From a virus, in IMG/VR virus record IMGVR_UViG_3300045988_172457, positions 13,245 through 77,244 of that record: 64,000 nucleotides of DNA; one strand, given 5' to 3'. Each line of letters starts with the position of its first letter. Positions within the stretch are counted from its first letter, which is position 1. The position numbers were made by a program, and so were the translations under genes. Under the pieces are notes generated by a model, which saw only the letters and a list, made by a program, of their open reading frames with translations, did no database searches and was not told the origin of the DNA. Of the stretch, positions 3,494-63,317 are shown in pieces.

Positions 3494-3797
3494 TCTGGTA
3501 GCGGACTCTTCGTTGGATTTTCAGTGGCCGCAGATATTTGTTGAGTCGGAGTTGTCCGACGGTGGGCGGGTCTCCTAGGATGTGGGGGATTCTTTGTATT
3601 CCGTCGTTTGTGTTGAAGTAAAGCAGGATTGGCGTCTCGTCCTTGCAGGAGTCAAGGAACCCTCCTACGGTGTCAAGGTCTTTGCGTGGACGGGAACGTT
3701 CTTGGGTTTGACTGTCCGTGATGTCCGTTTCGGTGTTCAAAAAGGAACCTTCCTTGTTTGTGACTGGTTCCACTATAACGTAGTTTTTCGCAAACAA
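3408..3797 (-). CDS. Hypothetical protein (129 aa)
   Basis: ORF with a plausible composition. Overlaps the downstream gene by 46-85 nt, so one of the two starts may be wrong. Confidence 0.4.
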   Translation of the reverse strand: MFAKNYVIVEPVTNKEGSFLNTETDITDSQTQERSRPRKDLDTVGGFLDSCKDETPILLYFNTNDGIQRIPHILGDPPTVGQLRLNKYLRPLKIQRRVRYQIAGTSDTGWVIRVDERFKKKKYIKASKA

Positions 3798-4514: not shown

Positions 4515-5540
4515 TCAGTTGCCGTCGGCCACGCATTGCGTGAGGAACGACTTCGTTTCGGCTTTTTCCCAACTGCTCATGGACAGCTTGTACTTGTCTT
4601 TGATGTACACGCGTTTAGCCATATACGAGCATTGGTACGTCTTGTTGGACGGGAGCCAAATGCTGGGCGTTGCGTCCTTCCACTTGGTCGAGGAACCGTT
4701 CAACGCCTCGTCCTTCACGAGGTTCACGCCCTGCTGTTTGATGTTGTTCGCTTCTCCTTCGGACGCGACGAGCACTTCCGGGTCGTTCGCGTAGGTGATG
4801 CGGTCGCCCTTGCGCGAGTCCTTCCACAGTCCGCTGGCCCAAGCGTCGTTGACCGCCACCACATGGTCGATTTGGACGGCCATGCTGTCCCCGCCTGTTT
4901 TCTTCTGTTTGCCGTTGACGGTCTCGTAGGTGTCGCGTTGGAATTTGATGGTCTTGCCGGTGTATGGGTCTTGGAGGGTTCCGGTGAGCACCTTGCAGTT
5001 CTTGTCCATGGTCACGTCGGTCATGTCGCGTTTGAGGATGTAGTCGCGGGTGGTGCCGTAACCGCAGAGCTGGTTGCTGTTCTGCCATGTGCCGAAGTCG
5101 GTTTTGCGGTTGTATCCTTTGGTGTGCGGGGTTGCGGTTTCGATGTCAGCGAGTTTGTCAAGCGCCTGTTTCGTGGTGATGGGGCTTAAAGCACCTTCAG
5201 GAACGCTTGTAGAGGCTTTTTGTGCTTGACTTGAGGAATTGTCCCCGTTTTGTGTCTGCGTCGTTTCTGAGGGCGTTTCTGTGGCTTCTGGAGTATTGGT
5301 TTGCGAATTGGAGCCGGACGGCTTCAAGGGAGGCTCCTTCAACCCCAATTTCACATCCGGCTTCACCTTGGAATCCTCACCCGGCATCAACTGGGACAGA
5401 CTGTTGATTTCCGGCAATCCGAAAATCTTCGACATGGGAGTCCACAATCCAAGATTCACGATGAGCACCATGGCCGTCAACACGACCAGAATGCCGCCAA
5501 GCAGGGAACCGGCGGACATGCCGCCTTTCTTCTTAGCCAT
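4515..5540 (-). CDS. Membrane-anchored extracellular DUF1524/HNH-like (His-Me finger) nuclease
   Basis: N-terminal TM (LLGGILVVLTAMVLIV), a Ser/Thr/Pro-rich linker, and a C-terminal domain with the GYNRKTDFGTW...CGYGTTRDYILKRDM...IDHVVAV motifs typical of secreted GmrSD-C/DUF1524 nucleases. Confidence 0.65.
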   Translation of the reverse strand: MAKKKGGMSAGSLLGGILVVLTAMVLIVNLGLWTPMSKIFGLPEINSLSQLMPGEDSKVKPDVKLGLKEPPLKPSGSNSQTNTPEATETPSETTQTQNGDNSSSQAQKASTSVPEGALSPITTKQALDKLADIETATPHTKGYNRKTDFGTWQNSNQLCGYGTTRDYILKRDMTDVTMDKNCKVLTGTLQDPYTGKTIKFQRDTYETVNGKQKKTGGDSMAVQIDHVVAVNDAWASGLWKDSRKGDRITYANDPEVLVASEGEANNIKQQGVNLVKDEALNGSSTKWKDATPSIWLPSNKTYQCSYMAKRVYIKDKYKLSMSSWEKAETKSFLTQCVADGN

Positions 5541-6996: not shown

Positions 6997-7229
6997 AGTT
7001 CCGCTCCGAATTCATTTCCGTTTGTCATGCACTGTCTTCAAGTCTACCTTCCGTCCGAGGTTTCCTATATCGGCTTCGGGGTTTTCAGCATGCATCCACC
7101 GGTGGTACTGGCTTCTCTGTTTTTCTTTTTCCGGAACTTTTCTTTTTTCTCTCTTCCACAAAAGGATTAGACCTGTTCAAACGTTCGAATCAGGGAAGCG
7201 AAAAAAGCATTGAGGATGACCTTTAAGCA

Positions 7230-7400
7230 GGGTTCAATCTCTTCAAAACATGAAATCTAAAAAATGGGTTTATTCTGTTTTTGATTTTTTGCTTCTTTTT
7301 AAAAAAACTTGTTTTTTGAAAAAAGAAGGGAATACAAGGGTTATTAATATTTTGTAATCTTTTGTATACCTTTTGCAGGTGTCGAAATCCCTTATGGGAG
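7230..7400. promoter_or_regulatory. AT-rich region adjacent to the iterons. Candidate DNA-unwinding element of the plasmid origin (oriV).
   Basis: A>80% AT tract (tttttgatttttttgcttctttttaaaaaaacttgttttttgaaaaaagaagg...) immediately upstream of the iteron array and rep. Confidence 0.4.
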
Positions 7401-7412
7401 TAGGCGTTTCAG

Positions 7413-7552
7413 GTCGAAAGCGTGTCAGAAGTTCCAACTTTCCGTGTCAGAAGTTCCAACTTTCCGTGTCGAAAGTTCCAACTTCCGTGTCAGAAGTGCC
7501 CACTTAGCGTGTCAGAAGTTCCAACTTTCCGTGTCGAAAGTTCCAACTTTTT
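7413..7552 (+). repeat. Iteron array: six tandem 21-22-bp direct repeats (consensus CGTGTCAGAAGTTCCAACTTTC) upstream of rep
   Basis: Units at approximately 7421, 7443, 7465, 7486 (degenerate), 7508 and 7530. A further degenerate copy lies near 7633-7650. Confidence 0.7.
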
Positions 7553-7729
7553 ATGCAGGGCGTGCCAGAATAACCCACCTATAGCGGCACCTTCTCACGC
7601 GTGCCCGAAGAGGTTGACTGCAACAGTGGAGAGGTCGAAAGTTCTAACTAGAATCAGAGAAAAGAAAACCCCGCGCTGCGGAACCAGCCGGGGTAACGGC
7701 AACCATCAACCTTAAGGAACTGTGGTCAC

Positions 7730-8599
7730 ATGACCTATGATAGCAAAGACCTCGACAAGTCAAACGCATACCGCTACGCCCCGTCCGTGATGTCAAAGCT
7801 GAGCTTCCTGCCACAGTCGAAACCGGACTCGCCATCCGTTAGGAAGACGAACGGGAACTCGTCAATCACCGTCTCAGCCTCCAACGGGGAATGGGCTTAT
7901 GGTGCGGCCCCCAGAATGTTCCTCCTCCACATTCGCTCTCTTATCAAGAACGGGAGCGACTGCGTGGACGTGGAGCATCATACCGTCTACTTGGACGACA
8001 CGTATAACTCGTTCTGCAATAGCGTCGGAATCAAATATTCCGGGTCGAACAAGAATAATGTGATGAAAATGGTTAAGAACCTAGCCACCACTTCCATCAT
8101 CCTCCAAAACTGGTCAGCAGACGGATTCATAGCCCACTCGTTCTTTGTCGCCAACACCGTGGCGCTCAACTACGGGACCGACGAAAACAAGAAGTCGTTC
8201 ATAGAATTCTCTCCCCAGATGTGGGCGCTGCTGACCGAGAACTGCGTGCCACTCAACCCGTACATCGTCCGTCGGCTTCGCAGTGACGCCCTCGCCTTGG
8301 ACATCTACCAGTGGCTCGCGTTCCGCGCGAACGGTGCCCGACGTGAAACCCGCGTAACATGGGAAGCTCTGTTGATGCAGTTCAAGTATGACGGGTATCC
8401 GATGCGTGAATTCAGACGCAAGTTCAGAAGAGCGTTGGAGAAGATTCAGCTCGCATGGCCGGAATTGAAAGTCGAAATCACGGAAACCGGCGTCATAGTC
8501 CGCCCCAGTCTCCCTTCCATCCAGTCGGGTAACGATGATGCCGACACGGACGCGGGTGGGGCAGATGATGAAGAGCCGATGAACCCGTTCGTATCCTGA
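7730..8599 (+). CDS. rep: Plasmid replication initiator protein (iteron-binding Rep, RepA-like)
   Basis: 289 aa. Position directly downstream of the iterons. The ...LDIYQWLAFRA...FRRKFRRALEKI helix-rich C-terminal half is typical of RepA-family initiators. Confidence 0.65.
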   Translation: MTYDSKDLDKSNAYRYAPSVMSKLSFLPQSKPDSPSVRKTNGNSSITVSASNGEWAYGAAPRMFLLHIRSLIKNGSDCVDVEHHTVYLDDTYNSFCNSVGIKYSGSNKNNVMKMVKNLATTSIILQNWSADGFIAHSFFVANTVALNYGTDENKKSFIEFSPQMWALLTENCVPLNPYIVRRLRSDALALDIYQWLAFRANGARRETRVTWEALLMQFKYDGYPMREFRRKFRRALEKIQLAWPELKVEITETGVIVRPSLPSIQSGNDDADTDAGGADDEEPMNPFVS

Positions 8600-8656
8600 A
8601 TGTGTTTTAGAAAAACCAATGGGACGTACGCTCTGTTGTGAGTGCCGCCCCATCTG

Positions 8657-8680
8657 GAAGACTTCGATGAAGTCTTTTTG
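8657..8680 (+). terminator. Rho-independent-type hairpin plus T-run after rep
   Basis: GAAGACTTC-gat-GAAGTCTTT followed by TTTTT. Confidence 0.4.
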
Positions 8681-8707
8681 TTCATCCGAAAATTAGTATA
8701 CCGGAGC

Positions 8708-9163
8708 CTAATCCTTCTGCTCATACTTGTCGATGAGCGACTGGTCGAAGTGCCCCTGCTGGAAGCAGTAATCCATCGCGGCATTCAACAATACAGCCTG
8801 CTTCGTCCCGTATTCGATGCTTCTCATCTTCCACGCACGCCAGTTTTCGACGGTGACGTTGCTGCCGATTCTTTTCTCTTTCGGCGGCTGATGCGTTTCG
8901 GATGGTGCCGGTGTTTCAGGATGGGTTATGTCGGTGATGAGCCGTGCCCGACGGTCGGCTTCTTCCTCCGTGAGCGTTTGGGCATGCATGTCGGCGGACG
9001 TTTGGACTGACTGGTCTGACGGTTCCCGCGTTTCAGGAACGGCCTGTGTCGGTTCCTGCTCCGTGTTCGGTTCGCTAATGTTTTCCGGTGATTCCAATGG
9101 GCGCATGTCACGCTTGTCCTGCATTCCGGTTGCGAAAGCGTTGCGTTTGATGTTCTTGACCAT
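8708..9163 (-). CDS. Putative partition adaptor/centromere-binding protein downstream of parA (151 aa)
   Basis: Operon position directly after parA. A disordered acidic N-terminus and a structured C-terminal ~60 aa. Function is inferred from context only. Confidence 0.4.
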   Translation of the reverse strand: MVKNIKRNAFATGMQDKRDMRPLESPENISEPNTEQEPTQAVPETREPSDQSVQTSADMHAQTLTEEEADRRARLITDITHPETPAPSETHQPPKEKRIGSNVTVENWRAWKMRSIEYGTKQAVLLNAAMDYCFQQGHFDQSLIDKYEQKD

Positions 9164-10548: not shown

Positions 10549-13500
10549 TCACTTCATGAACGGCGGTTTGGGTGTCGGCTGTCCTCCGGTCGGCGGTTTC
10601 TTCATGTGAAGATTGCCTACGGAGGGGAAACCTGTCAGGTTTGACGGGTTGGCGTCCACTGGCTGTTTGACGGTCGGTGACGGTGTGGTTGGCGGTTGCA
10701 TTCGAACCGACGGCTGTTGTCTTACCTGAGCTTGTGGCTGCGGTTGAGACTGCTGTCGCGGAGCTTGCGCCTGTACCGAACCCTTCTGTTGCGTCTGACC
10801 GGAATCAACCGTGAATTCTCTACTCGGCTGAATTCCATTCGGGTTCATGGCACGTTCCGCACTCGCAGGCATCATATCGCCCGGAAGACCCGTCGTTCTA
10901 GTCCACTCCTCCTGTGCCATACGCAAATGCTCCTCCGGAGACTGTTGCACCGGATTCTCGCGCATGTACGCCTGTTGCAGTGAATTGTTCACCGATTCAG
11001 GCATCGGAGTCGCATTGTCGGTTGCCTTCTGCCAAGTGGAGGCGGCGGACACGGCGGCGTCCATCGTTCCGGAGGGTAGGGTCTCACCGACAATCTCACC
11101 TGTCTCAGTGTTGTACACCGGCTGATTGGCATTCATCTCAGGTTGAGCCGTCACATTCTCGATAGGAGATTGATTGTTTTGGCTCATATACGCTTGGACA
11201 GAATCATCGACTTCACCGGAGGCCACGGCTTCTTGGAAAGCTTGTTCCGCATCCTCTTGAGACATGTGCTGGTTATTCGTGAAGTCTGCCATCATTCCCT
11301 CACGAACCTGATTGAACGCGGACTGTTCAGTCAACACCGGAGCCTGTCCTTGAGCGTCGGCTGGAACCGATTCAGTTGGAGTGTCCACCGGAATCGTTTC
11401 CGTCTGACCGTCAGTCGGAATCGTCTCGGTCTGACCGTCAGTCGGAATAGGCGACGCGCCACCGGCACCACCGGTTTGGGTCGGGGCATTCGGAGTCGGA
11501 GCCGTCGGGGAAGGCATAGGACTGTCACCATCGGCGGAACCACCGTTACCGGTGCCGGAGAACGGAGACGACAACGGAGCGTCACCATTAGCCATGCCCA
11601 ACACGTTGCGACGCCACTGGTCGCGTTTCCTCATACTGCCGGGAGCAGCGTTCCTGATGTCGCGGATTTTGTCCATCGCGGCTCCCGCACCCACCGCTAG
11701 GCCATGATGGAGGTTACGGTCGGTAGCTAGCTTTCCTGCGGCAATCAATCCCAACGGTGCGGTAATCGGATTGGAGAACAAAGCTCCTGCGACAGCGGCT
11801 TTCGCGGCGACCTTCGCTCCGCGTGCGGCTACGTTACGCAAAGGAGCGCTCTTCGCGGCTCGTGCGGCGAAAGCGAGACCGGCACCGGCCATTGCGGCTC
11901 CGGCTCCGGCGACTCTTGCCGCGCCTTGAAGTTTGCGTCCGGCATTGTTCAGATGGTTCATCCTTTGTGCTTTGCGTTGCACATCGTTGAGGGACATGCC
12001 CGGGTGACGTTGAGCGATACTATGGGCGAACGCCTCCGTATTGTCCTCTCCATGGAACTTGGAAACGGCTTCGTTCAACCGTCCCTTGAACTTGCCCGTG
12101 GAATCCTCAAAATGGAGTTTCGTACCGGCAAGACTTCCTCTCACCGTGCTCTTGTCCATTCGTGCCCAGTTCTTGCTTCCGCGTCCACGCGTCTGAATCG
12201 CCTCGAACTCCTTGGCGTTACGATTCATCAGATTCCTATCGCCCTGACTCAACGAATCCTGTTGCGCGCGGCTCATCTTGCTCAGGATGGTCGCGCTTTG
12301 ACGTGCTCCGTTATGGGCCATGCCAGCGCCGGTACCGTTCGTGGACAAACGTCCGACACCATTGCCGCCACGACGGAATCCGCCACGCATGGCGCGAATC
12401 ATACGGTACTGTCCAATCATGTGCATTCCCTTGCGAAGACCGGACGCCATTGCGGTTCCACCCGCCATTCCCATGAGAGCGTTGACGCTGAACGGATTAC
12501 CACACTTCAACACTTTCGAACAGAACATGCCGATTGCGGCGAGAGCCAACACCGGACTCAATCCCGCAATCAACTGGTAGGTGAACGAACCACTGCTGGC
12601 AGAGGTGAACTTCAACGTCAGGCCACAAATGAATGTTGCGAGAGCGCCGAGCGCACCGTACAACGCTCCTACCATACTCAACTGGCAGGTGTACGTCGCC
12701 CAGTTCTTCAACGCCGTCTTCGGCTTCTCGCCAATCGGGAACGCTTGGACAAGGAACGTGACCACGAGGAACAACGCCATCATTATCAGCATGAGCTTCG
12801 TCAGTATTAGAACAAGGCTCAACAATCCCCAGACCACGAGATTGACGATGCCTCCGATAAGTGTTCCGCAAGCACCCAACGTATCGACGTTGTTGTTGCC
12901 ATACATGTAGTCGATGGTTTTCTTCGCACCGCCCGTGACCGTGGAATCATCCTGAGCGTCACGAAGATTCGCCTCACTCCAAGTTCCGGAAACGTTCGGC
13001 ACGTCGAAACGCCATCCGACCGTGGCGGAGTCGCCCCAGTTGGTGTCGTTCTGCTGGTCTTTATATGTTCCGTCATCCTCCTTGTTGATATCGGTGGAAC
13101 GGGAGAAGATTACGGAACCCTGTTTGAGAATCGTCTGGCAGACCGAAGTGGTCTGTTGGATGGTTTCGTCTTCGCTGCCGTTCTGTTTCGCGTCCATCAC
13201 GCCTTTGCCACCGTTGGTCGGTTTCACATTGTCCAAGTCGTCAATTTTGACGCGTACTTTCGTACTGCCGTTCTTGATGTTCTTGGTTCCTGTGTCACCG
13301 AGATTGTTGATGAGTGTCGCCCATCCGGCTCGCGCGTAGATTTCCTGATTGCGTTTCGTGCCACAGGTTTCCCAGAACACGCCCGCACGGCTGAGATATG
13401 TCGCGTTCTCCCTTTCCAACGGCTTGTCGGTGAAGTAAGGATTACGCGGGTCTACCCAACCGTCCACGGAGAACAACCATTTGGCTCGCTGGTCGCTGAT

Positions 13501-43167: not shown

Positions 43168-44397
43168 ATGTCTTGGGTTGTTGCCGACGACCTGCCCTCA
43201 ACCATTCTTTTCTCTTTCCCTAGTGAAGGAAGCATTAAAATCGTGAATGCGAGTCAAAGACGTAGAAGACGCCAACGCAGACTGCAACAACGCTCGGATG
43301 ATAAGTACAGGAAGCTCCACCGTTACATCGACTTCCAACAAACATTCGGATTCGACGCGCTCTACCAAGCCGCAAGAAAATGCAAACGCGGCGTCACATG
43401 GAAAAACACAGTGTTGAACTTCGACAATAGGCGTGCCGTCAACTGTTGGAAACTCGCCCAAGAATTAGAGGACGGCACATACAAGAAGAGAGCGCCAATC
43501 CGATTCGACATTTCCGAACGAGGCAAACTCCGCCACATCAGCGCGGTATCCTTCCGAGACCGGGTGGTGCAACGCGCCTTATGCGACAACAGTCTCGTCC
43601 CCATCGTGGAAAGCCAACTGATATACGATAATGCGGCAAGCCTACCGAAACGTGGAACATCGTTCGCCCGAAAACGGTTCGAACTACACTATAAGCGGGC
43701 TTTGGGCAAATGGGAGCATCCGTATGCTGTCATCTTCGACTGTGCCAACTATTTCGGAAGTATCAGCTCCCAACGAGCGTTCGATATGATTTCCACCCTG
43801 TACCGGAGCATCGCCCGCACCGGACGGGAGAAGCAGGATGTGGAACGGATTCTAACCGTATTGAGAATCTTCGTATTGGACGAACCTCACTTGGGTTTAG
43901 GCAATCAGACAAGCCAAACCATGGCTATCTGGTATTTGAACAAGGTTGACCACTGGTGCATGTCGCAAGGATTCTACGGACGGTATATGGATGATGCCTA
44001 CTGTTTCTGCAAGAATCGTGAACAGGCCGAACGTGTGCTGGCCGGTTACGAGCGGCATGTCAATCAATTGGGATTGCGGTTGAACAAGCGCAAGACCCGC
44101 ATAGTGGACTGTCGCACCGGTCAACTCACATTCCTGAAACGCGTATACAGCGTACAGGATGACGGCAGTATTCTTATCCGCATGCACCATAAGGCGTTGC
44201 GTGCAAGCCGACGGCATGCGCGTAACCTTATCCGCTCATATGATGGCGTGCATGTGGGATTGCGGACAGTTCAGGATTCTTGGACGAGCCATGAGAGCAC
44301 ACTGTCGGGTCTAACTCACCGTCGTGGACTGTGCGCTCGGGAGAAAGCGTGGTATCGGAGGCATTGTGAAATGCGGAAGCTGGCTTTTCACCCGTGA
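43168..44397 (+). CDS. DGR reverse transcriptase
   Basis: Conserved DGR-RT N-terminal block (AARKCKRGVTW...ELEDGTYKKRAPIRFDISERGKLRHISAVSFRDRVVQRAL). The motif-4 SQ variant (LGNQTSQTMAIWYL) is a DGR hallmark. YMDD catalytic motif. Confidence 0.85.
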   Translation: MSWVVADDLPSTILFSFPSEGSIKIVNASQRRRRRQRRLQQRSDDKYRKLHRYIDFQQTFGFDALYQAARKCKRGVTWKNTVLNFDNRRAVNCWKLAQELEDGTYKKRAPIRFDISERGKLRHISAVSFRDRVVQRALCDNSLVPIVESQLIYDNAASLPKRGTSFARKRFELHYKRALGKWEHPYAVIFDCANYFGSISSQRAFDMISTLYRSIARTGREKQDVERILTVLRIFVLDEPHLGLGNQTSQTMAIWYLNKVDHWCMSQGFYGRYMDDAYCFCKNREQAERVLAGYERHVNQLGLRLNKRKTRIVDCRTGQLTFLKRVYSVQDDGSILIRMHHKALRASRRHARNLIRSYDGVHVGLRTVQDSWTSHESTLSGLTHRRGLCAREKAWYRRHCEMRKLAFHP

Positions 44398-57198: not shown

Positions 57199-57849
57199 AT
57201 GTTGAGAATCGAGAAGACGCTGAAAGAACTGCGTGACCTTCAAAACACCTTGCATGGACTCGGAATCGAAATGTCCATCAATGATGCGGATGTCGAAACG
57301 AAAAGCGATTACGAGGATGCGGCGATGACCATTGACATATACGAGCCGTGTCGTTGTTTCGCGTGGGTCGGCATGGACGGCGTGGTTCACATGAGATGGA
57401 ATTCGTATCCCGATGCCTTCACGTGGTTTCGGATGAACCTGCTTTTGGACCTCGCTCGCGGCTACATGCTGAAAGCGGACAATATCACGAAATCGTGGAC
57501 GCACCTTCGCAGGAATCTCGACGGACAAGCCGACGAAATGCCCCTCCCCGACAAACTGGCCGGAAGGAAAGCGGAATACGAGGATGCAGCCAACCGGCTA
57601 CGCGACCTTATCAAAGCTGACCCGATTGCAATGGATTTATCCCCTTACGAATGCGAACGCCTTGAAAGGTTCCTCCGCGACCCGCAGAAGGAGCGTCTTC
57701 TGGAGTACGACCCGGACGACCCGTTTTATCGGAATATGTTCAACAGGGGATTGATTGACCGCGAGGGACTGACTGAACTGGGACGAAAGGCTATGGAACA
57801 TTACATTTCCGTGCGTCAACCTCGGATACGGGTTGGTTTGTCTTCTTAA
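57199..57849 (+). CDS. Hypothetical protein (216 aa)
   Basis: RBS AAAAAGGAGAAACGGAA before the ATG. Confidence 0.55.
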   Translation: MLRIEKTLKELRDLQNTLHGLGIEMSINDADVETKSDYEDAAMTIDIYEPCRCFAWVGMDGVVHMRWNSYPDAFTWFRMNLLLDLARGYMLKADNITKSWTHLRRNLDGQADEMPLPDKLAGRKAEYEDAANRLRDLIKADPIAMDLSPYECERLERFLRDPQKERLLEYDPDDPFYRNMFNRGLIDREGLTELGRKAMEHYISVRQPRIRVGLSS

Positions 57850-57857
57850 CCAACTGT

Positions 57858-57880
57858 GTTATACTGGGGGTGTTCACATA
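57858..57880 (+). promoter_or_regulatory. Repeated promoter/leader motif copy (GTTATACTGGGGGTGTTCACATA)
   Basis: Near-identical to the 55962 copy. Confidence 0.5.
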
Positions 57881-57925
57881 AAAAAACAGTCGAAAAGACC
57901 ACCATCCCGATTCGGAGTAACAACA

Positions 57926-58552
57926 ATGCATAGCCTATACAAGACCGCAGGTAAATGCACTCTCAACCGAAACAAAGTGCGTTACCCCAACCAAAAGGAA
58001 GCCCAACTCGCCTTGGCCGTCATCAAAGGACGAGGCAATCCGAAACACACTGAGAAACGCGCATACCATTGCCCCGTCTGCCACGGATGGCATCTGACTA
58101 GCGCCGAAACCGTTAATGATACAGTCCTGTCCGGGAGTGTGCTCCAACACACCAATCCAGACGCGTTCGACACAGGAATGAAAGCGTTCCTCTCTGGTTC
58201 CAAACGCGGCAAATATTCCGCAAGCAAAGCCAGCCTGACCCGACGTGTCCGACATTTGCTCCACTTGTTCGCGGCTAACGATATTCCGAAGGACTCTTGG
58301 GACAATCCATGGTTGTGGGCAACTCTTAGATTCCAAGTCATGTGGAGGGGCGGAGACCAGAAGGCCGAACAGCTTCTATCCACTTCGAAGAAAACGGTCA
58401 AAATGGCGGGCGACATGCTCACCGAAGACAAGGAGCCGTTCCTTCGCGTGGCTGAAACCCGGAAGGAAGCACAGAAATTACAGAATACACCACTACCGGC
58501 ATGGTTGGCCGTCGCACTGATGTCCGACAAGGGAAAGGAGCAGAAAGTTTGA
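57926..58552 (+). CDS. Hypothetical protein (208 aa) with a CPVCHGWH zinc-finger-like motif
   Basis: Start at the Met downstream of the promoter copy. HCPVCHGWH. Confidence 0.5.
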   Translation: MHSLYKTAGKCTLNRNKVRYPNQKEAQLALAVIKGRGNPKHTEKRAYHCPVCHGWHLTSAETVNDTVLSGSVLQHTNPDAFDTGMKAFLSGSKRGKYSASKASLTRRVRHLLHLFAANDIPKDSWDNPWLWATLRFQVMWRGGDQKAEQLLSTSKKTVKMAGDMLTEDKEPFLRVAETRKEAQKLQNTPLPAWLAVALMSDKGKEQKV

Positions 58553-58997: not shown

Positions 58998-59005
58998 ACC
59001 GTTTT

Positions 59006-59893
59006 ATGGACACTAGTGAAAAGCAGATTATCGGAGAGAACGCCAAATACGTTTCCGACACCATCCCGCAGGAAACCAAGGATGGGCTTCGCGCCCATTT
59101 GAAGCCCGGATACGCCATGCCGGACGGCACCCATTATGCGACAGGCATGGATTACACGGAACTTATGCGCAATCTGCGCAACATCCAATACTGTGGCTGT
59201 CCGCTCTGCCACGACACGCAGTCCGGATTGGAAACCATTCTCGCGACCAGCGGCATGACCGTCCGTGAGCTTGCCGAGGAAATCGCATGCGACGAATACG
59301 ATTCGTATTCTGTCTCTGAAATCCGCGACCTTGACCCGGAACAGTTGAAGCCAGTGGACGAGATTATCGAGGATATCAACCGTTGGAGCCACGACCAGCA
59401 TGCGCTCGAACACGCTTCCTTCGGCACTGTCAGGCTTCTGTCCGTCTACTTGAACGTCAGCCTCGACCAGATGTACGACGAATTGGATTATCAGACGCTC
59501 ATCTACACGCCATGGGAGGAGGACTCCCACATTCACGGCTATGTGACGGTCATCCGTTACAAGGACGGAAAGTATGAGGTGGATGTTCCGGAATGCCGAT
59601 ACCAGTGCGACGAAATGTATTGGAACGCGCGTCGCAAGATGGAAGAATCCAACACTCCCATCACGTTGGATGTTCTGCGTAGCGAACCGTGGAGCAAGGA
59701 GCATCGCACTCCCGTGGCATTGCCGGAACAGTATCGTGGCAAACAGTATCATCTGGGAGACCCTTACAGCCTGTCAACTTTGCTGGACAAGCTGGCCTCA
59801 CATGATGTTCCGGTGGACGAGAGAGTTCTTATCGCCCTCGAACTGGAGGAACAGTTCCCGTTGCGGTTGACTCCACTGTCCGAAAAGGACTGA
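59006..59893 (+). CDS. Hypothetical protein (295 aa)
   Basis: Long ORF containing a CGCPLCHD motif. Confidence 0.55.
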   Translation: MDTSEKQIIGENAKYVSDTIPQETKDGLRAHLKPGYAMPDGTHYATGMDYTELMRNLRNIQYCGCPLCHDTQSGLETILATSGMTVRELAEEIACDEYDSYSVSEIRDLDPEQLKPVDEIIEDINRWSHDQHALEHASFGTVRLLSVYLNVSLDQMYDELDYQTLIYTPWEEDSHIHGYVTVIRYKDGKYEVDVPECRYQCDEMYWNARRKMEESNTPITLDVLRSEPWSKEHRTPVALPEQYRGKQYHLGDPYSLSTLLDKLASHDVPVDERVLIALELEEQFPLRLTPLSEKD

Positions 59894-59953
59894 CATTTTC
59901 TAGGGAGAAGCCGATAGCAGCCTCTCCCTCTCTTAGTCAAGAAAGGAAACCCG

Positions 59954-61009
59954 ATGGTTAGAAAAATGGTGAGCGTTCAAAAGATTGAGGGAGTGTATCC
60001 CATTGAGAACGCAGACCGTATCGAGAAGATTCGCATTGGCGGTTGGATTGTCGTAGTAGGCAAGGACATGGGATTAAAGCCCGGCGACCATGTGGCCTAT
60101 TACGAAATCGACTCCATGCTGCCCGCCGACGACCCACGCTATACGGACTTGCAGAAGCGTGGTCAGCGTACCGTTCCCGTGTCCAACACGATTACCGGCG
60201 AAGAGAAGGAAATCACCGGACACGTGCTACGTACCGCGCGACTGCGCGGAGTGTACAGTCAAGGACTAGTCATGCCGCTTTCAACGATTGGCGTACCGGA
60301 GGACACTCCCATCGGCACTGATATCACCTTACAGGCGGACGTATGGAAGTATGAGGAACTGCCACCATTGAAAGGCGGTGACATGGTTGGTGCTTTCAAC
60401 GCGCCATGCTCCAAGTCCGACGCCACGCGAGTGCAGAATCTCACCGCGTATTGGGATGAAATCAGGCGGATTGCGTGGACTCCGACCGTGAAGGTGGACG
60501 GTACCAGCACCACAATCTACCGTGATATGGATGATACGGTTCACGTCTACTCTCGCAATTGGGAGTTGAAGCCGGAATGCACGAACATGCAGGTGGCGGT
60601 GAAAACCGGATTGGTTGACGCGTTGGAGAAAGGCATGGTCTGCCAGTTCGAGCTGTGCGGCCCAAGTGTCAACGGCAACAGGTTGAAGCTGGCGTCCTAT
60701 CGTCCATTCGTGTTCGCCGTATGGCGTGACAATATGAAACTCGACCGTAGGGATTGGCCGAAAGCCATGCTTGACAACGCCGTCCCACTGTTAGACGAGA
60801 CCGAGTGGAAGCCGACCGGCGATGTGATGGACATGATTGCCAAAGTGGACGGTCTGCGCGGCAACGTGACCCGCGACTTGTTGGACGAAGGAATCGTCTG
60901 GCATGCGAAAGCGGGCGAACGGTTGAGCGACGACCTGTACAACGAGCTTGGCAGCAACCGTTGCTTTAAAATCATCAACAACAAGTATCTGACTAAGCAT
61001 GGTCTTTGA
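59954..61009 (+). CDS. ATP-dependent RNA ligase family protein (351 aa)
   Basis: N-terminal OB-like domain (KIEGVYPIENADRIEKIRIGGWIVVVGKD...GDHVAYYEIDSMLP). Nucleotidyltransferase motif I KVDGTS (the adenylated lysine). Resembles the DraRnl/NgrRnl-type Rnl family. Confidence 0.6.
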   Translation: MVRKMVSVQKIEGVYPIENADRIEKIRIGGWIVVVGKDMGLKPGDHVAYYEIDSMLPADDPRYTDLQKRGQRTVPVSNTITGEEKEITGHVLRTARLRGVYSQGLVMPLSTIGVPEDTPIGTDITLQADVWKYEELPPLKGGDMVGAFNAPCSKSDATRVQNLTAYWDEIRRIAWTPTVKVDGTSTTIYRDMDDTVHVYSRNWELKPECTNMQVAVKTGLVDALEKGMVCQFELCGPSVNGNRLKLASYRPFVFAVWRDNMKLDRRDWPKAMLDNAVPLLDETEWKPTGDVMDMIAKVDGLRGNVTRDLLDEGIVWHAKAGERLSDDLYNELGSNRCFKIINNKYLTKHGL

Positions 61010-61079
61010 TGTCGAATAGGGGGCTGGGCTTACTTTTGTGTTCAGACCCCTGTTTCGTCTTTCATATCATTCCTGTCTT

Positions 61080-61102
61080 GTTATACTGGGGATGTTTACA
61101 AA
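61080..61102 (+). promoter_or_regulatory. Repeated promoter/leader motif copy (GTTATACTGGGGATGTTTACAAA)
   Basis: Same family. Located inside the 3' end of the RNA ligase gene region. Confidence 0.4.
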
Positions 61103-61108
61103 CGCCGG

Positions 61109-61306
61109 ATGAAACAAAGAAGTGGCGAATTGAATATCTCCAACATGTCGGAAGAGACGATAGAAGAAAACCTACCCGACCTGTCCCCGCATTTAGAGGA
61201 TGGGTTCAGTCTGAAACAGCTTGAAACACTCCACGATTATGCCGTGGAAGCTTTCAAGGCCGGAATCGAATACGCCAACAACAATCGAAAAGGAGCCGTA
61301 AATTGA
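61109..61306 (+). CDS. Hypothetical small protein (65 aa)
   Basis: ORF with a weak RBS. Sits just downstream of the promoter copy. Confidence 0.35.
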   Translation: MKQRSGELNISNMSEETIEENLPDLSPHLEDGFSLKQLETLHDYAVEAFKAGIEYANNNRKGAVN

Positions 61307-62301
61307 CCGATAGGAAAACGTGGGTCATCTCCATTCCACCAGTCAAATGTCCCGATGACATGACCGGCATCCCTAACTATTACATTCAAATATGGGAAAA
61401 GTACGTCGGCAAGGTCAAGCCGGAAGGTGGAGACCGTGAGGATTGGATTGAAACCTGTTCCCGACTTTACTGGGGTGTCCGCAATCTAGGTGAGGACGCC
61501 ATAGTCCGAGTGCATGGGAAAACCGACATCGACCCGAAACAGCTAATCGGATTACCGCACTTCGGACAAGTGTTGGACATGCCGCCAATCGACCAGTATG
61601 CAGACCCATCTCATGCCGACCGTTACGCCATCAATTCCAACGTGCGTATGCTCATGCATCGGAAGGCGAAACTCAGTTCCATCTACGAGGATGACATCAA
61701 ACATGCGTTCGCTTCTCTTATTAGGGACGGTGTTTCGTCGTTCTTCATCAAATTCATGAACCAAGCCAAATGGCTACCGAATTTGAAAATCTCCGGAACT
61801 AATCTTGACGAGCTTGAACAGCAGGTGCAGGAGTGGGGAGGTTGGGCGTTTGTTCATGCGGATGATGACCCGAATGCTCTGCTTATTCAGGAGAATGTCG
61901 ATGTCCAATACGAGTATCGCATGTTCATGGTCGGCAACCAGCCTGTCTGCGGCGCTGGCAATATCGGATTGAAAACACCAATCGACAACATGCATACGAG
62001 ATTTGACCCTCAAATGCAGAAGATTCGTGACGACACCACCGTTAAGAACGTTGAACTCAGACCGGATTTGGCGGAACGATACCGTGAGTTCGCCACGCGA
62101 GCCGGACGAATGTTCTCACACTGCGGTTACGGCGCGTACACGCTCGACCTGTGTCTTATCAAGGGTGAAGTGTCAATCGTGGAATTGAACGGCATGATGA
62201 ACGCCGGACTGTTCGCATTGAACATGAACGATTTGACGAGCGCGTTGCGAGTCAATTGGAAACAGTGTCTTCCCCCGGTTCTACTCGAAACGGCTATCTA
62301 A
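61303..62301 (+). CDS. ATP-grasp fold enzyme (332 aa)
   Basis: C-terminal ...YTLDLCLIKGEVSIVELNGMMNAG fits the ATP-grasp Mg/ATP-binding E-x-N motif. TTG start with RBS AAAGGAG. Confidence 0.5.
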   Translation: MTDRKTWVISIPPVKCPDDMTGIPNYYIQIWEKYVGKVKPEGGDREDWIETCSRLYWGVRNLGEDAIVRVHGKTDIDPKQLIGLPHFGQVLDMPPIDQYADPSHADRYAINSNVRMLMHRKAKLSSIYEDDIKHAFASLIRDGVSSFFIKFMNQAKWLPNLKISGTNLDELEQQVQEWGGWAFVHADDDPNALLIQENVDVQYEYRMFMVGNQPVCGAGNIGLKTPIDNMHTRFDPQMQKIRDDTTVKNVELRPDLAERYREFATRAGRMFSHCGYGAYTLDLCLIKGEVSIVELNGMMNAGLFALNMNDLTSALRVNWKQCLPPVLLETAI

Positions 62302-62317
62302 AAAGAGAGGAATAATA

Positions 62318-62818
62318 TTGGAAAACGGAGAAAAAGAATGCCCCTCATGTGCCAGACGTGAGGTGTCGTTATCGGATTATCCAGATTGGAGTCAATGCAA
62401 CAGTTCAGCACTCCGCGATTGCGTCAATCGGCTCAACAATTACGATGCTGGAATCGTATTCGGAATGCATTTCGGAAACCCGGACTTCGTACTGGAAGGC
62501 GACCCTAATCCAGCAAAAAAGAACATTCTGTTCTTCAAAGCGGATAAAAAGTACGTTTATCTGGAAGTTGTCACTATGGAAGATGGGAACGTGCCGAAAG
62601 AGCATATTCCAATAGTCCGAATGTGCAAACCTTGCATGGCTCTTATGGGGGAATATTTTTGGAGCGAATATCTTCCGAAAGAGTTTTGGGAAGGATACGA
62701 GCAAAATGTGTTGCACACTCTGAAAAGACTGGTGGGCGACCCCAGTGTCGAATCAAACGCCGACCTGATTAAGTATGCGAGAGAAATCGTCCACGGCGAC
62801 ATGCTCATCGACTGGTAG
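62318..62818 (+). CDS. Hypothetical protein (166 aa) with CPSC...C motifs
   Basis: TTG start after RBS AAAAGAGAGG. Internal Cys pairs CPSCARREV and MCKPCMALM. Confidence 0.45.
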   Translation: MENGEKECPSCARREVSLSDYPDWSQCNSSALRDCVNRLNNYDAGIVFGMHFGNPDFVLEGDPNPAKKNILFFKADKKYVYLEVVTMEDGNVPKEHIPIVRMCKPCMALMGEYFWSEYLPKEFWEGYEQNVLHTLKRLVGDPSVESNADLIKYAREIVHGDMLIDW

Positions 62819-63246
62819 TGTCTGTTGGCTTGTTTTTAAATAGAGAGGGAGTATTTTTGCGACCACAATCAGAAGACACCGTGGAACTCACCACCGTCAT
62901 CGACCCCGCGTCCATCACACGCATGGCGTCCAGCCGTCCGGACAATAGGGAAACCACCATGTATGGCAGACACGGCAAGCATGACAGCAAGCCGCCAAAA
63001 ATCAAAAAGTCACGGGCTAAAACGGATAAAACCAAACATCCCATAGAACAGGTCATGCCATTCGTCATGCTCGCCGTAAGCATTGTTTTCTTGGCGGGGA
63101 TGGTTCCGATTCTCTGGCTTATGCCGGTTTCGGAACCAGAGGATATGATTGTCCGTCCTATTCTGACCGGCCTGATTGGTGTGGTGGCGGTTTCCGCCAA
63201 CATTCCGGCTTGGGTGTATTTCTCCCGTTGGCGTCGAGATTCATAG
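62818..63246 (+). CDS. Membrane protein (142 aa, 2 TM), start uncertain
   Basis: Helices VMPFVMLAVSIVFLAGMVPILWLM and ILTGLIGVVAVSANIPAWVYF. Confidence 0.45.
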   Translation: MSVGLFLNREGVFLRPQSEDTVELTTVIDPASITRMASSRPDNRETTMYGRHGKHDSKPPKIKKSRAKTDKTKHPIEQVMPFVMLAVSIVFLAGMVPILWLMPVSEPEDMIVRPILTGLIGVVAVSANIPAWVYFSRWRRDS

Positions 63247-63272
63247 AAAAGCTAAATCCGAAACATTTCCTT

Positions 63273-63295
63273 GTTATACTGGAAACAACCACATT
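63273..63295 (+). promoter_or_regulatory. Repeated promoter/leader motif copy (GTTATACTGGAAACAACCACATT)
   Basis: Same family. Confidence 0.45.
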
Positions 63296-63317
63296 CAAGC
63301 AAAAGCAAGGAAAACAC

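Follow-up and report, generated by a model that had tools for sequence, protein, structure and literature searches.

We analysed a 64,000-nucleotide stretch of the IMG/VR record IMGVR_UViG_3300045988_172457 (positions 13,245 to 77,244; hereafter the window), in which the gene for an ATP-dependent RNA ligase and the gene for an ATP-grasp protein lie near one another on the + strand of what appears to be a plasmid distantly related to pMP7017, a conjugative megaplasmid of Bifidobacterium breve. By homology, both proteins are new, diverged members of known families, the ligase of Rnl5 and the ATP-grasp protein of the R2K clade, and their pairing is lineage-specific. We hold with moderate confidence that the ligase and the cassette bearing the ATP-grasp gene would be two co-regulated, separable units of a loose set of RNA- and translation-support functions, not an obligate repair machine. 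The observations consist of family identities, intact catalytic residues, gene organisation, membership of a plasmid family and variability of linkage; from these we infer substrates, transcription units and a physiological role. The features concerned are as follows, and loci of related elements are referred to below by handle (L001 and so on).

57857-57883, + strand: promoter-motif copy upstream of the ligase (TGTTATACTGGGGGTGTTCACA), the nearest copy 5' of it
59954-61009, + strand: Rnl5-family ATP-dependent RNA ligase, 351 amino acids, ATG start (Pfam, TIGR02306, NgrRnl, phrog_968)
61013-61057, + strand: terminator-like hairpin and U-rich tract (core stem 61019-61051), 4 nucleotides past the ligase stop (RNA fold)
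61076-61105, + strand: promoter-motif copy in the gap between the ligase and a small open reading frame (ORF), with an extended -10 and a downstream box (motif 61079-61100)
61109-61306, + strand: small ORF for an acidic helical protein, 65 amino acids as listed and probably 58 (selection on codons, homologues)
61303-62301, + strand: R2K-clade ATP-grasp amide ligase, 332 amino acids, TTG start (catalytic set, R2K matches)

An Rnl5-family RNA ligase with intact motifs

A preliminary description of this DNA had taken ORF 59954-61009 for an ATP-dependent RNA ligase on the basis of its KVDGTS motif and OB-like N-terminal domain, and Pfam, TIGR02306, the solved structure 5cot and phrog_968 all bear this out. 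A Shine-Dalgarno sequence (AAAGGAAA) lies ahead of the ATG start, and KVDGTS occupies residues 180-185 (nucleotides 60491-60508), with K180 as the lysine nucleophile. The protein consists of an N-terminal OB-like domain (approximately residues 5-109) and a nucleotidyltransferase domain, matching Pfam PF21189 (PHA02142 OB-fold) over residues 5-109 (E=4.6e-20; 72 bits against a cut-off of 27) and PF09414 (RNA_ligase) over residues 175-320 (E=7e-10, above threshold). The NCBIfam model TIGR02306 (RNA_lig_DRB0094) covers its full length (residues 7-348 against 4-341 of 341; E=3.9e-29), and PHROGs assigns it to phrog_968, 'RNA ligase' (E=1e-46); a weak match to phrog_548 (E=0.0046) is confined to the motif I region. 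The closest solved structure is Naegleria gruberi NgrRnl (5cot; E=3.9e-35, residues 2-316), whose N domain aligns with the ligase from residue 2 and whose K170, within KLDG, pairs with K180 (PMC4408790). Counting against a close assignment, the score of 101.6 bits falls below the TIGR02306 equivalog cut-off of 151.15, and the ligase is best described as a member of the DRB0094 family with no close equivalog. Rnl5 ligases are present in 331 phage records, and identity to the homologues from cultured phages is at most 37.5%.

The ligase was aligned with six homologues that are 34-92% identical and stem from related elements, from pMP7017 and from the phages Mimi (Arthrobacter) and Mic1 (Microcystis). 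Unchanged in all six are motifs I (K180-V-D182-G183), Ia (S200-R-N-W-E204), III (Q231-x-E233), IIIa (F254), IV (E312-G-x-V315) and V (F338-K339...K348). The protein ends three residues past the motif V lysine K348 and, unlike Rnl1 and Rnl2, has no C-terminal appended domain; PF09511 (RNA_lig_T4_1) finds no match in it, and its best models are Rnl5. Profile searches that could have placed the protein among DNA ligases or capping enzymes thus returned Rnl5 instead, and its predicted motifs identify it as a complete member of that family and neither of the others.

Rnl1 and Rnl4 seal breaks in the loops of stem-loops, whereas Rnl5 resembles Rnl2 in that it seals duplex nicks with 3'-OH/5'-PO4 ends, and the strand that supplies the 3'-OH must be RNA; the activity of Rnl5 on single-stranded RNA is 'comparatively feeble', and NgrRnl can use a DNA template to join DNA to the 3'-OH of an RNA strand (PMC4408790). 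The founding Rnl5, DraRnl (DR_B0094), is encoded on a megaplasmid of Deinococcus radiodurans and needs at least two ribonucleotides at the 3'-OH end, and its deletion delays post-irradiation genome reassembly; the authors left a DNA-repair versus an RNA-repair role of Rnl5 enzymes undecided, and the physiological role is called 'uncharted' (PMC5397189). By family biochemistry, the window ligase would adenylylate K180 with ATP, pass the AMP to a 5'-phosphate and seal a 3'-OH/5'-PO4 nick, and its targets may be breaks in base-paired structure with an RNA 3'-OH strand, whether in tRNA or rRNA stems or in RNA:DNA hybrids.

No kinase, phosphatase or phosphoesterase family was found in the flanking ORFs scanned between 44 and 64 kb, a scan that many small ORFs fall outside. 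ORFs 59006-59893 and 62318-62818 match no Pfam, NCBIfam, PHROGs or PADLOC family and show no P-loop or 2H motif by eye. PrrC-type nucleases leave cyclic-phosphate/5'-OH ends. Since no end-healing partner was found among the scanned ORFs, the ligase would be limited to breaks that already carry 3'-OH and 5'-PO4 ends, and would be unable to handle ends of the PrrC type.

An ATP-grasp protein of the R2K clade

ORF 61303-62301 had been described as an ATP-grasp-fold protein with an E-L-N metal-site motif, which its R2K matches, a structure search and the sequence E294-L-N296 confirm, and as a protein of no obvious role that might be a new component. The latter does not hold: the protein belongs by sequence to the described R2K (Cdc123) clade of predicted protein modifiers, and is no orphan. 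Its catalytic set comprises K150 and K156, E204-x-R206, D282 and E294-L-N296. The TTG start lies 7 nucleotides past a strong AAGGAG, inside the 3' end of small ORF 61109-61306, and W7, V8, P13 and P17 are invariant in the family, which rules out a later start.

The Pfam scores stand somewhat against this placement, with the protein just under both R2K gathering thresholds (R2K_3, PF14243, 22.8 bits against 26.3; R2K_2, PF18299, 21.3 against 26.2). Because the two models score it about equally and both below threshold, we consider it part of a subfamily that neither captures well. Clustered at 90% identity, the close family falls into 29 groups, every one of them from metagenome assemblies, and a hidden Markov model scan of 1.84 billion representatives returned 520 relatives at E<=1e-3, 401 of them at E<=1e-10. 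Across 50 members (23-60% identity), K150, E204, R206, D282, E294 and N296 are invariant and the second lysine (K155/156) is kept in at least 90%; R2K_2 is matched by 48 of the 50 and R2K_3 by 45 (E<=1e-3; best E approximately 1e-12). The features that define R2K enzymes (PMC4431377) are present, both the ATP-grasp fold with its pre-ATP-grasp domain and the residue set of two RAGNYA-domain lysines, ExR, Asp and ExN.

A PDB sequence search of the protein gave chance RimM matches only and was uninformative, so that a structure search was needed. The structural neighbours that it returned include the macrocyclases PsnB, CdnC, MdnC and AMdnB, which act on ribosomally synthesized and post-translationally modified peptides (RiPPs), as well as the small-molecule ligases DcsG, Ddl, GshB and BacD. 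A profile search of genome contigs with the close-family alignment found nothing; the 50-member alignment was too diverse for pattern design, and a 16-member subset was used for the genome contig search.

The R2K clade was described as a group of predicted protein-peptide ligases in biological conflicts (Burroughs, Zhang & Aravind 2015; PMC4431377). The protein-peptide or amino-acid ligase activity of the published bacterial families is a prediction, and the bacterial enzymes have no known substrate (PMC4431377). We consider it most likely that the window protein would use ATP to convert a carboxylate to an acyl-phosphate and then form an amide bond, adding an amino acid or short peptide to a protein. 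As the target we would guess first at a translation component, given the precedents of RimK with S6 and Cdc123 with eIF2 and the tRNA arrays found near relatives of the gene. Across the same pairs of elements, the ATP-grasp protein is 78, 74, 60 and 33% identical, against 92, 83, 78 and 62% for the ligase; such faster divergence fits a protein that tracks a variable target.

Hairpin, promoter and small gene between the ligase and ATP-grasp genes

The preliminary description had also reported a tiny ORF and a promoter copy between the two genes. Both are real, although the spacing is 293 nucleotides and not the 280 given. The predicted hairpin that follows the ligase stop has a folding energy of -24.7 kcal/mol (z=-3.56 against shuffles); it is kept in L017, and L001 has an analogous inverted repeat. 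No Rfam family was found for the hairpin or anywhere in the window.

The promoter copy in the gap consists of TG (61079-61080), TATACT (61082-61087) and GTTTACA (61094-61100), and is one of ten + strand copies of the repeated motif TGnTATA(C/G)TGG-N4-GTTCACA that lie between 47786 and 63293, one per 1-3 kb. Further copies stand at 3759, 4228 and 26855 (-). The pattern has 15 matches in the window against 1.8 expected, and zero shuffles reached 15. A generic sigma-70 and terminator scan of the region detected neither the repeated promoter nor the hairpin, and its calls were not enriched. The regulon-like motif is conserved in the related elements L001, L004, L033, L034 and L042: it follows the Rnl5 stop in L001, L004 and L042, is missing from that position in L033, and precedes a unit of a 120-amino-acid gene (120-aa), the small ORF and the ATP-grasp gene in L004, L042 and L034. 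From the invariant GTTCACA box immediately 3' of the -10, it would seem that an operator or start-site element is common to the whole accessory array.

No further copy occurs between 57878 and 61082 at up to 3 mismatches, and the copy at 57857-57883, being the nearest upstream, probably drives the unit that ends with the ligase; its equivalent precedes the gene for a 208-amino-acid protein upstream of Rnl5 in L001 and L042. The layout points to two transcription units, one running from the 57857-57883 promoter through the ligase and the other from approximately 61094 through the small ORF and the ATP-grasp gene, and the latter probably includes ORF 62318-62818. Since both would use the same promoter type, they are probably co-regulated.

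The small ORF contains an invariant in-frame TTG at 61130, with a purine-rich tract resembling a Shine-Dalgarno sequence upstream, which is likely the true start and would give 58 amino acids. Against four diverged relatives, its ratio of nonsynonymous to synonymous differences (pN/pS) is 0.06-0.29 at pS 0.3-0.8, with the L034 and L004 rows excluded as out of register, and codon comparison thus marks it as a real gene under purifying selection. The protein has a conserved core of approximately 50 residues (NLPxLxPHLEDGFSLKQLExLHDYAxEAFxAGIxYA) and a variable, non-acidic C-terminus. A single-sequence AlphaFold2 model (predicted local distance difference test score, 76) has a short helix joined by a conserved loop to a long one. 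A weak match to RraB (E=0.0034) is unsupported, the model being a simple helix-loop-helix.

The stop of the small ORF overlaps the ATP-grasp start by 4 nucleotides, which suggests translational coupling. Homologues precede the ATP-grasp gene in the window-like loci, L001, L033, L034-36, L042 and L004. Taken together, the overlap with its internal Shine-Dalgarno sequence, the purifying selection and the presence of the small gene where no ligase is adjacent make the small protein the tighter partner, and gene comparison identifies it, not the ligase, as the most constant partner of the ATP-grasp protein in close relatives. The second unit, with its own promoter, would thus encode an acidic helical protein of 58-65 amino acids coupled to the ATP-grasp protein, probably together with the 166-amino-acid product of ORF 62318-62818, and the small protein may be an adaptor, a regulator or a substrate of the ATP-grasp enzyme.

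A short coupled ORF directly upstream of an ATP-grasp gene, along with RiPP macrocyclases and small-molecule ligases among the structural neighbours, would also be expected if the ORF encoded a precursor peptide and the enzyme were a graspetide-like tailoring enzyme making a secreted or toxic peptide, or else a maker of small-molecule amides. We regard this as highly improbable. R2K, whose members are predicted protein modifiers, is the best family assignment; the small protein is a predicted helix-loop-helix conserved throughout its core, with no leader followed by a hypervariable or repeat core, and is missing from most ATP-grasp relatives; and the cassette has no evident gene for a transporter, a protease or immunity.

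Relationship of the window to the megaplasmid pMP7017

The genes had been thought plasmid-borne, and the backbone agrees. The window is collinear at the protein level with pMP7017, with backbone identities of 47-59%, among them an 886-amino-acid ATPase (59%), DnaB (54%), a ParA-like protein (57%), a GmrSD/DUF1524-like protein (51%), a 1343-amino-acid protein (48%) and an exonuclease (58%); a sortase is 40% identical. Megablast of 59000-63300 against PLSDB and INPHARED gave no DNA-level match, and the kinship is drawn from protein searches. In pMP7017 and B. longum megaplasmids, Rnl5 is 62-63% and the ATP-grasp protein 33-34% identical to that of the window. Transfer of pMP7017 by conjugation has been demonstrated experimentally (PMC10832533, PMC8313286). 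Protein collinearity thus identifies the replicon as plasmid-like and a distant relative of pMP7017. Related loci vary in GC content between 0.50 and 0.65, which suggests several host lineages.

What speaks against a plasmid is that 28 relatives (IMG/VR loci L014-L041) are filed as viral contigs of up to 217 kb. The element could on this account be a huge phage or phage-plasmid, the array an early or host-takeover region and the ligase a counter to host RNases. Arrays of tRNAs are typical of large phages, as are small genes packed closely behind strong promoters that recur. Rnl5 is common in large phages (the 331 records above), and several window proteins match PHROG families. We nonetheless consider a phage very unlikely, because a PHROGs scan of 18 window ORFs turned up no family of capsid, terminase, portal or tail proteins, the backbone follows the gene order of a conjugative plasmid, the sortase-pilus and ParA/DnaB modules are like those of pMP7017, and nothing in 50,697 phage records matches the ATP-grasp gene at the DNA level or its protein closely. 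The 'viral' relatives are probably misclassified members of a megaplasmid family.

Variable linkage of the ligase and the ATP-grasp gene

We compared the spacing of the two genes across relatives, given here with the identity of the ATP-grasp protein to that of the window.

Window-like loci (93-99%), L001 (78%), L033 (74%) and L004 (60%): Rnl5 immediately upstream, with one extra gene in L004
L033: approximately 40 nucleotides from the ligase stop to the small-ORF TTG, with no promoter and no hairpin
L042 (74%): (120-aa)-small-ORF-ATP-grasp unit 6.6 kb and approximately 13 genes from Rnl5
L034-36 (73-74%): small ORF and ATP-grasp gene, with no ligase within 8 kb
Branches at 67%, 53-58% and 48-49%: no ligase within 1.5-8 kb per side
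pMP7017: Rnl5 and ATP-grasp gene 8.4 kb apart
Seven other PLSDB plasmids with both genes: approximately 60-226 kb apart
Twelve loci in named genomes, mostly Micrococcales: no Rnl5, Rnl1 or RtcB within 10 kb of the ATP-grasp gene

The synteny upstream of the ATP-grasp gene in the window-like loci, L001, L033 and L004 probably reflects one ancestral arrangement. In L042 the promoter motif that follows the ligase would drive a homologue of ORF 62818-63246 directly, and this arrangement indicates that the small ORF and ATP-grasp gene, with or without the 166-amino-acid gene, behave as a movable cassette. Among Bifidobacterium megaplasmids the distance from Rnl5 to the ATP-grasp gene ranges from 8.4 to approximately 66 kb. 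The notion that the two genes form a conserved pair is therefore not sustained, given the hairpin and promoter between them, the 6.6 kb separation in L042, the approximately 8-226 kb in eight PLSDB plasmids and the absence of a nearby ligase from all 12 distant loci.

Several observations nevertheless tell against our two-unit reading. Adjacency of Rnl5 and the cassette is kept down to 60% ATP-grasp identity (L004), and in L033 the short spacing with neither promoter nor hairpin makes co-transcription probable there; both would suit a tighter link in function. The small-protein family accompanies the ATP-grasp gene in close lineages down to 60% identity, except L013 and leaving the 67% branch out of account, and was not detectable beside relatives at 61% identity or less, save in L004; its standing as a constant partner is thus restricted to the close family. 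The 126/127-amino-acid ORF upstream of the ATP-grasp gene in Bifidobacterium was tried as a small-protein homologue and rejected, as it shows no detectable similarity despite a 4-nucleotide overlap with the ATP-grasp gene. Many of the compared loci are moreover related, so that counts of co-occurrence are not independent. This applies to the PLSDB plasmids, where the ATP-grasp gene is matched in 20 of 72,556 records and an Rnl5 homologue is carried by 15 plasmids, eight of which are among the listed ATP-grasp plasmids; all eight are actinobacterial megaplasmids and so do not count separately.

RNA ligases and tRNA arrays near relatives

The window has neither tRNA genes nor Rfam families, so that any link to tRNA comes from relatives. 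In pMP7017 (L049), an array of 18 tRNAs (121375-125804; ARAGORN) ends 1.1 kb upstream of a same-strand Rnl5 gene (126895-127932). Its transcriptome study places 20 tRNAs and a transfer-messenger RNA (tmRNA) there and leaves the ligase and the ATP-grasp gene unmentioned (PMC10832533). Phage Mimi, which carries the closest phage Rnl5, has it inside a tRNA cluster. Arrays of 6-14 tRNAs also lie 1-6 kb from the ATP-grasp gene in seven loci, at 1-2 kb downstream in L007, L038, L066 and L067 of the 53-58% branch and at 3-6 kb in the three Micrococcales genomes L053, L055 and L061. L067 additionally has an ADP-ribosylglycohydrolase gene (1061-1852) approximately 6 kb upstream of its truncated ATP-grasp homologue, which echoes the linkage of R2K enzymes with ADP-ribosylglycohydrolases reported by Burroughs et al. 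2015 (PMC4431377), and SecE and SecG homologues are present there, as in pMP7017.

Ligases of other types occur near the ATP-grasp gene as well. In L013 (ATP-grasp 61%), the gene immediately downstream encodes a 584-amino-acid fusion (7204-8958) whose N-terminus matches T4 polynucleotide kinase (1ly1; E=8e-7) and whose C-terminus matches the ligase domains of Trl1 (6n0v; E=7e-9) and T4 Rnl1 (2c5u; E=4.5e-7), with no phosphatase or cyclic phosphodiesterase (CPD) domain detected in it. Being of another family and on the other side of the ATP-grasp gene, this ligase represents an independent juxtaposition. In the megaplasmid of Arthrobacter sp. zg-Y1110 (L050; 5902-7913 and 11664-12848), RtcB lies 4.7 kb downstream of the ATP-grasp gene in the same array. 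The ATP-grasp homologue of L050 is longer, at 458 amino acids, and overlaps a downstream SLOG-family gene.

These contexts speak for the proposal with which the preliminary description had begun, that the ligase and ATP-grasp protein, perhaps with the small protein, form one RNA-repair module that shields the plasmid on entry, or its host, against tRNA- or rRNA-cleaving defence toxins, the ATP-grasp protein being a new component that would modify, for example, the nuclease, the ligase or a protein partner of the damaged RNA. Such a module would account for the four lineages in which the genes stay adjacent, where identity falls as low as 60% for the ATP-grasp protein and 78% for the ligase, for the probable co-transcription in L033, for the independent kinase/Rnl1-type fusion in L013, for RtcB in Arthrobacter and both genes on eight of the 15 Rnl5 plasmids, and for tRNA arrays near both genes. 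It sits poorly with the hairpin and promoter between the genes, with the displaced cassette of L042, with the lack of a nearby ligase in the 67%, 53-58% and 48-49% lineages and within 10 kb at the 12 distant loci, and with the separation in Bifidobacterium megaplasmids. Rnl5 furthermore seals nicks in duplexes and not in loops (PMC4408790), no healing enzyme was found among the scanned neighbours, eight local proteins gave no PADLOC match, and no known RNA-repair system includes an amide-forming ATP-grasp enzyme (PMC7824862). On balance we judge a single repair module unlikely. A role related to tRNA is favoured by context in relatives, namely the tRNA arrays of pMP7017 and Mimi and the L013 fusion. 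With an Rnl5 rather than an Rnl1 enzyme and no Pnkp-like enzyme among the scanned neighbours, the T4 Pnkp and Rnl1 analogy is not directly transferable.

It is also conceivable that the ligase acts on the DNA side, sealing ribonucleotide-terminated nicks or RNA:DNA junctions during plasmid replication, repair or conjugative establishment, and that the ATP-grasp protein is unrelated to it. The requirement of DraRnl for only two or more 3' ribonucleotides and its deletion phenotype (PMC5397189) fit such a role, as do the sealing of RNA to DNA by NgrRnl (PMC4408790) and the presence of DnaB, ParA and a 3'-5' exonuclease in the window, in the same array. However, the tRNA arrays that adjoin Rnl5 in pMP7017 and surround it in phage Mimi point to RNA, the related element L013 encodes a genuine RNA-end-healing kinase in one polypeptide with an Rnl1-type ligase, and the window ligase lies approximately 29 kb from DnaB rather than beside replication genes. 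We rate a DNA-side role as rather improbable.

Neighbouring genes in the accessory array

As the preliminary description had it, both genes stand in a same-strand array of small accessory genes, one marked by uniform gene orientation and the repeated promoter. Two neighbours are conserved with them.

57926-58552, + strand: 208-amino-acid protein; the listed ORF starts at 57833, and 57926 is the first ATG past the promoter (weak PHROG matches)
62318-62818, + strand: 166-amino-acid Cys-rich protein, directly downstream of the ATP-grasp gene

The 208-amino-acid protein weakly matches PHROG families of unknown function. Its homologues lie upstream of Rnl5 in L001, L042, L033 and L004 at 69-85% identity, making it the most conserved preceding gene and a better candidate partner for the ligase than the ATP-grasp protein is. 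It carries a zinc-ribbon-like motif, CPVCHGW. The 166-amino-acid protein, without a match in the four family databases named above, is conserved in all window-like loci, and its residues 70-160, approximately, match ORFs that adjoin the ATP-grasp gene downstream in L004 and upstream in L038 and L039, which suggests from gene order a second partner travelling with the ATP-grasp gene. The matching ORFs are 7188-7418 in L004, 7185-7403 in L038 and 4122-4376 in L039.

No PADLOC model was found for eight proteins (the ligase, the ATP-grasp protein, the small ORF product, four neighbours and the L013 fusion), and the scanned ORFs of the window returned no recognised anti-restriction family. Neither oriT nor the relaxase of this kind of plasmid was located in the window. 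The window contains a DUF2786/DUF7168 protein, a GNAT protein and an exonuclease, and the homologous region of pMP7017 has Lar, a large orphan methyltransferase and toxin-antitoxin genes; by analogy, placement of the array in an establishment or leading region is plausible. At the start of the array, a reverse transcriptase gene (43168-44397) matches the generic reverse transcriptase models and the DRT/UG-type defence models of PADLOC (best E=6e-26). Genes for TnpB (IS605-family OrfB) and the GmrSD_C/DUF1524-like nuclease lie at 597-1766 and 4515-5540 (-). At 51% identity to the pMP7017 protein, the nuclease is part of the conserved backbone and not of the cargo.

Discussion

The window ligase shares with DraRnl and NgrRnl the same two domains, the motifs and the lack of a C-terminal module, and DraRnl is likewise megaplasmid-encoded; it differs in falling below the equivalog cut-off and in its setting within a plasmid accessory array, as in pMP7017, where the gene adjoins tRNAs and tmRNA. 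T4 Pnkp and Rnl1 form a tRNA-repair pathway that counters the PrrC anticodon nuclease. Like them, the window encodes an ATP-dependent RNA ligase on a mobile element that plausibly protects RNAs of translation, and L013 places a T4-Pnk-like kinase joined to an Rnl1/Trl1-like ligase beside the ATP-grasp gene. T4 Rnl1, however, has a C-terminal tRNA-specificity domain that the window Rnl5 lacks, and a healing enzyme was not found in the scanned ORFs.

The ATP-grasp protein has the architecture, residue set and sporadic distribution on mobile elements of the R2K clade, whereas its context differs from the published ones, which are GNAT, ADP-ribosylglycohydrolase and type VI secretion; the R2K survey makes no mention of a small coupled ORF, RNA ligases or tRNA arrays (PMC4431377). 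It is only 12-13% identical to RimK, the glutamyl ligase of ribosomal protein S6, and to LysX/ArgX, whose small acidic carrier is LysW. The small protein, with no zinc-ribbon and with its variable, non-acidic C-terminus, is not LysW-like in sequence, and no lysine or arginine biosynthesis genes were found near the window ATP-grasp gene.

A published precedent exists in Anabaena, where one repressor, TrcR, controls rtcB, the ATP-grasp gene rimK and a tRNA operon located on a megaplasmid as parts of a translational-stress response (PMC10272220). The TrcR regulon of Anabaena PCC 7120 thus unites the same trio (megaplasmid tRNAs, an RNA ligase and an ATP-grasp enzyme) that is scattered on actinobacterial megaplasmids. 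There the enzymes are RtcB and RimK and the genes mostly chromosomal; here they are Rnl5 and R2K, and common regulation is suggested by the shared promoter motif. pMP7017 shares the backbone of the window and carries both Rnl5 and the ATP-grasp gene, but has no DNA-level similarity to the window, precedes its ATP-grasp gene with a non-homologous 126-amino-acid ORF and bears tRNAs that are absent from the window; its literature discusses neither gene (PMC10832533).

Two likely misreadings are corrected here: the pair is no fixed operon, and the relatives that IMG/VR lists as 'viral' are in all probability megaplasmids. Mildly novel is the context that ties Rnl5 and one R2K subfamily to tRNA arrays and several RNA-ligase types on actinobacterial megaplasmids, a context not discussed in the R2K, Rnl5 and pMP7017 papers (PMC4431377, PMC5397189, PMC10832533). 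For Rnl5, it provides clues in one gene that adjoins tRNAs and tmRNA of a conjugative megaplasmid and another that a phage carries within its tRNA cluster; for R2K, in one subfamily found near tRNA arrays and three RNA-ligase types. Since pMP7017 carries both genes and is transferable, and a B. breve transcriptome exists, the hypotheses are testable in an existing genetic system.

We also put forward, as a speculative and quite doubtful extension, that actinobacterial megaplasmids and some large phages carry a dispersed kit for the protection of translation made up of extra tRNAs (with or without tmRNA), a stand-alone Rnl5 and an R2K ATP-grasp enzyme with its small adaptor. In such a kit, Rnl5 would reseal tRNA or rRNA in which metal-dependent nucleases, whether of defence systems or toxins, have left 3'-OH/5'-PO4 nicks, while the fast-evolving ATP-grasp enzyme would covalently attach an amino acid or peptide to a protein of the translation apparatus or to an attacking toxin. 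Were the ATP-grasp enzyme to modify the translation machinery or cooperate with RNA repair, the significance of these genes would rise, and the kit, if real, would provide the first physiological role for Rnl5 and the first substrate for a bacterial R2K enzyme.

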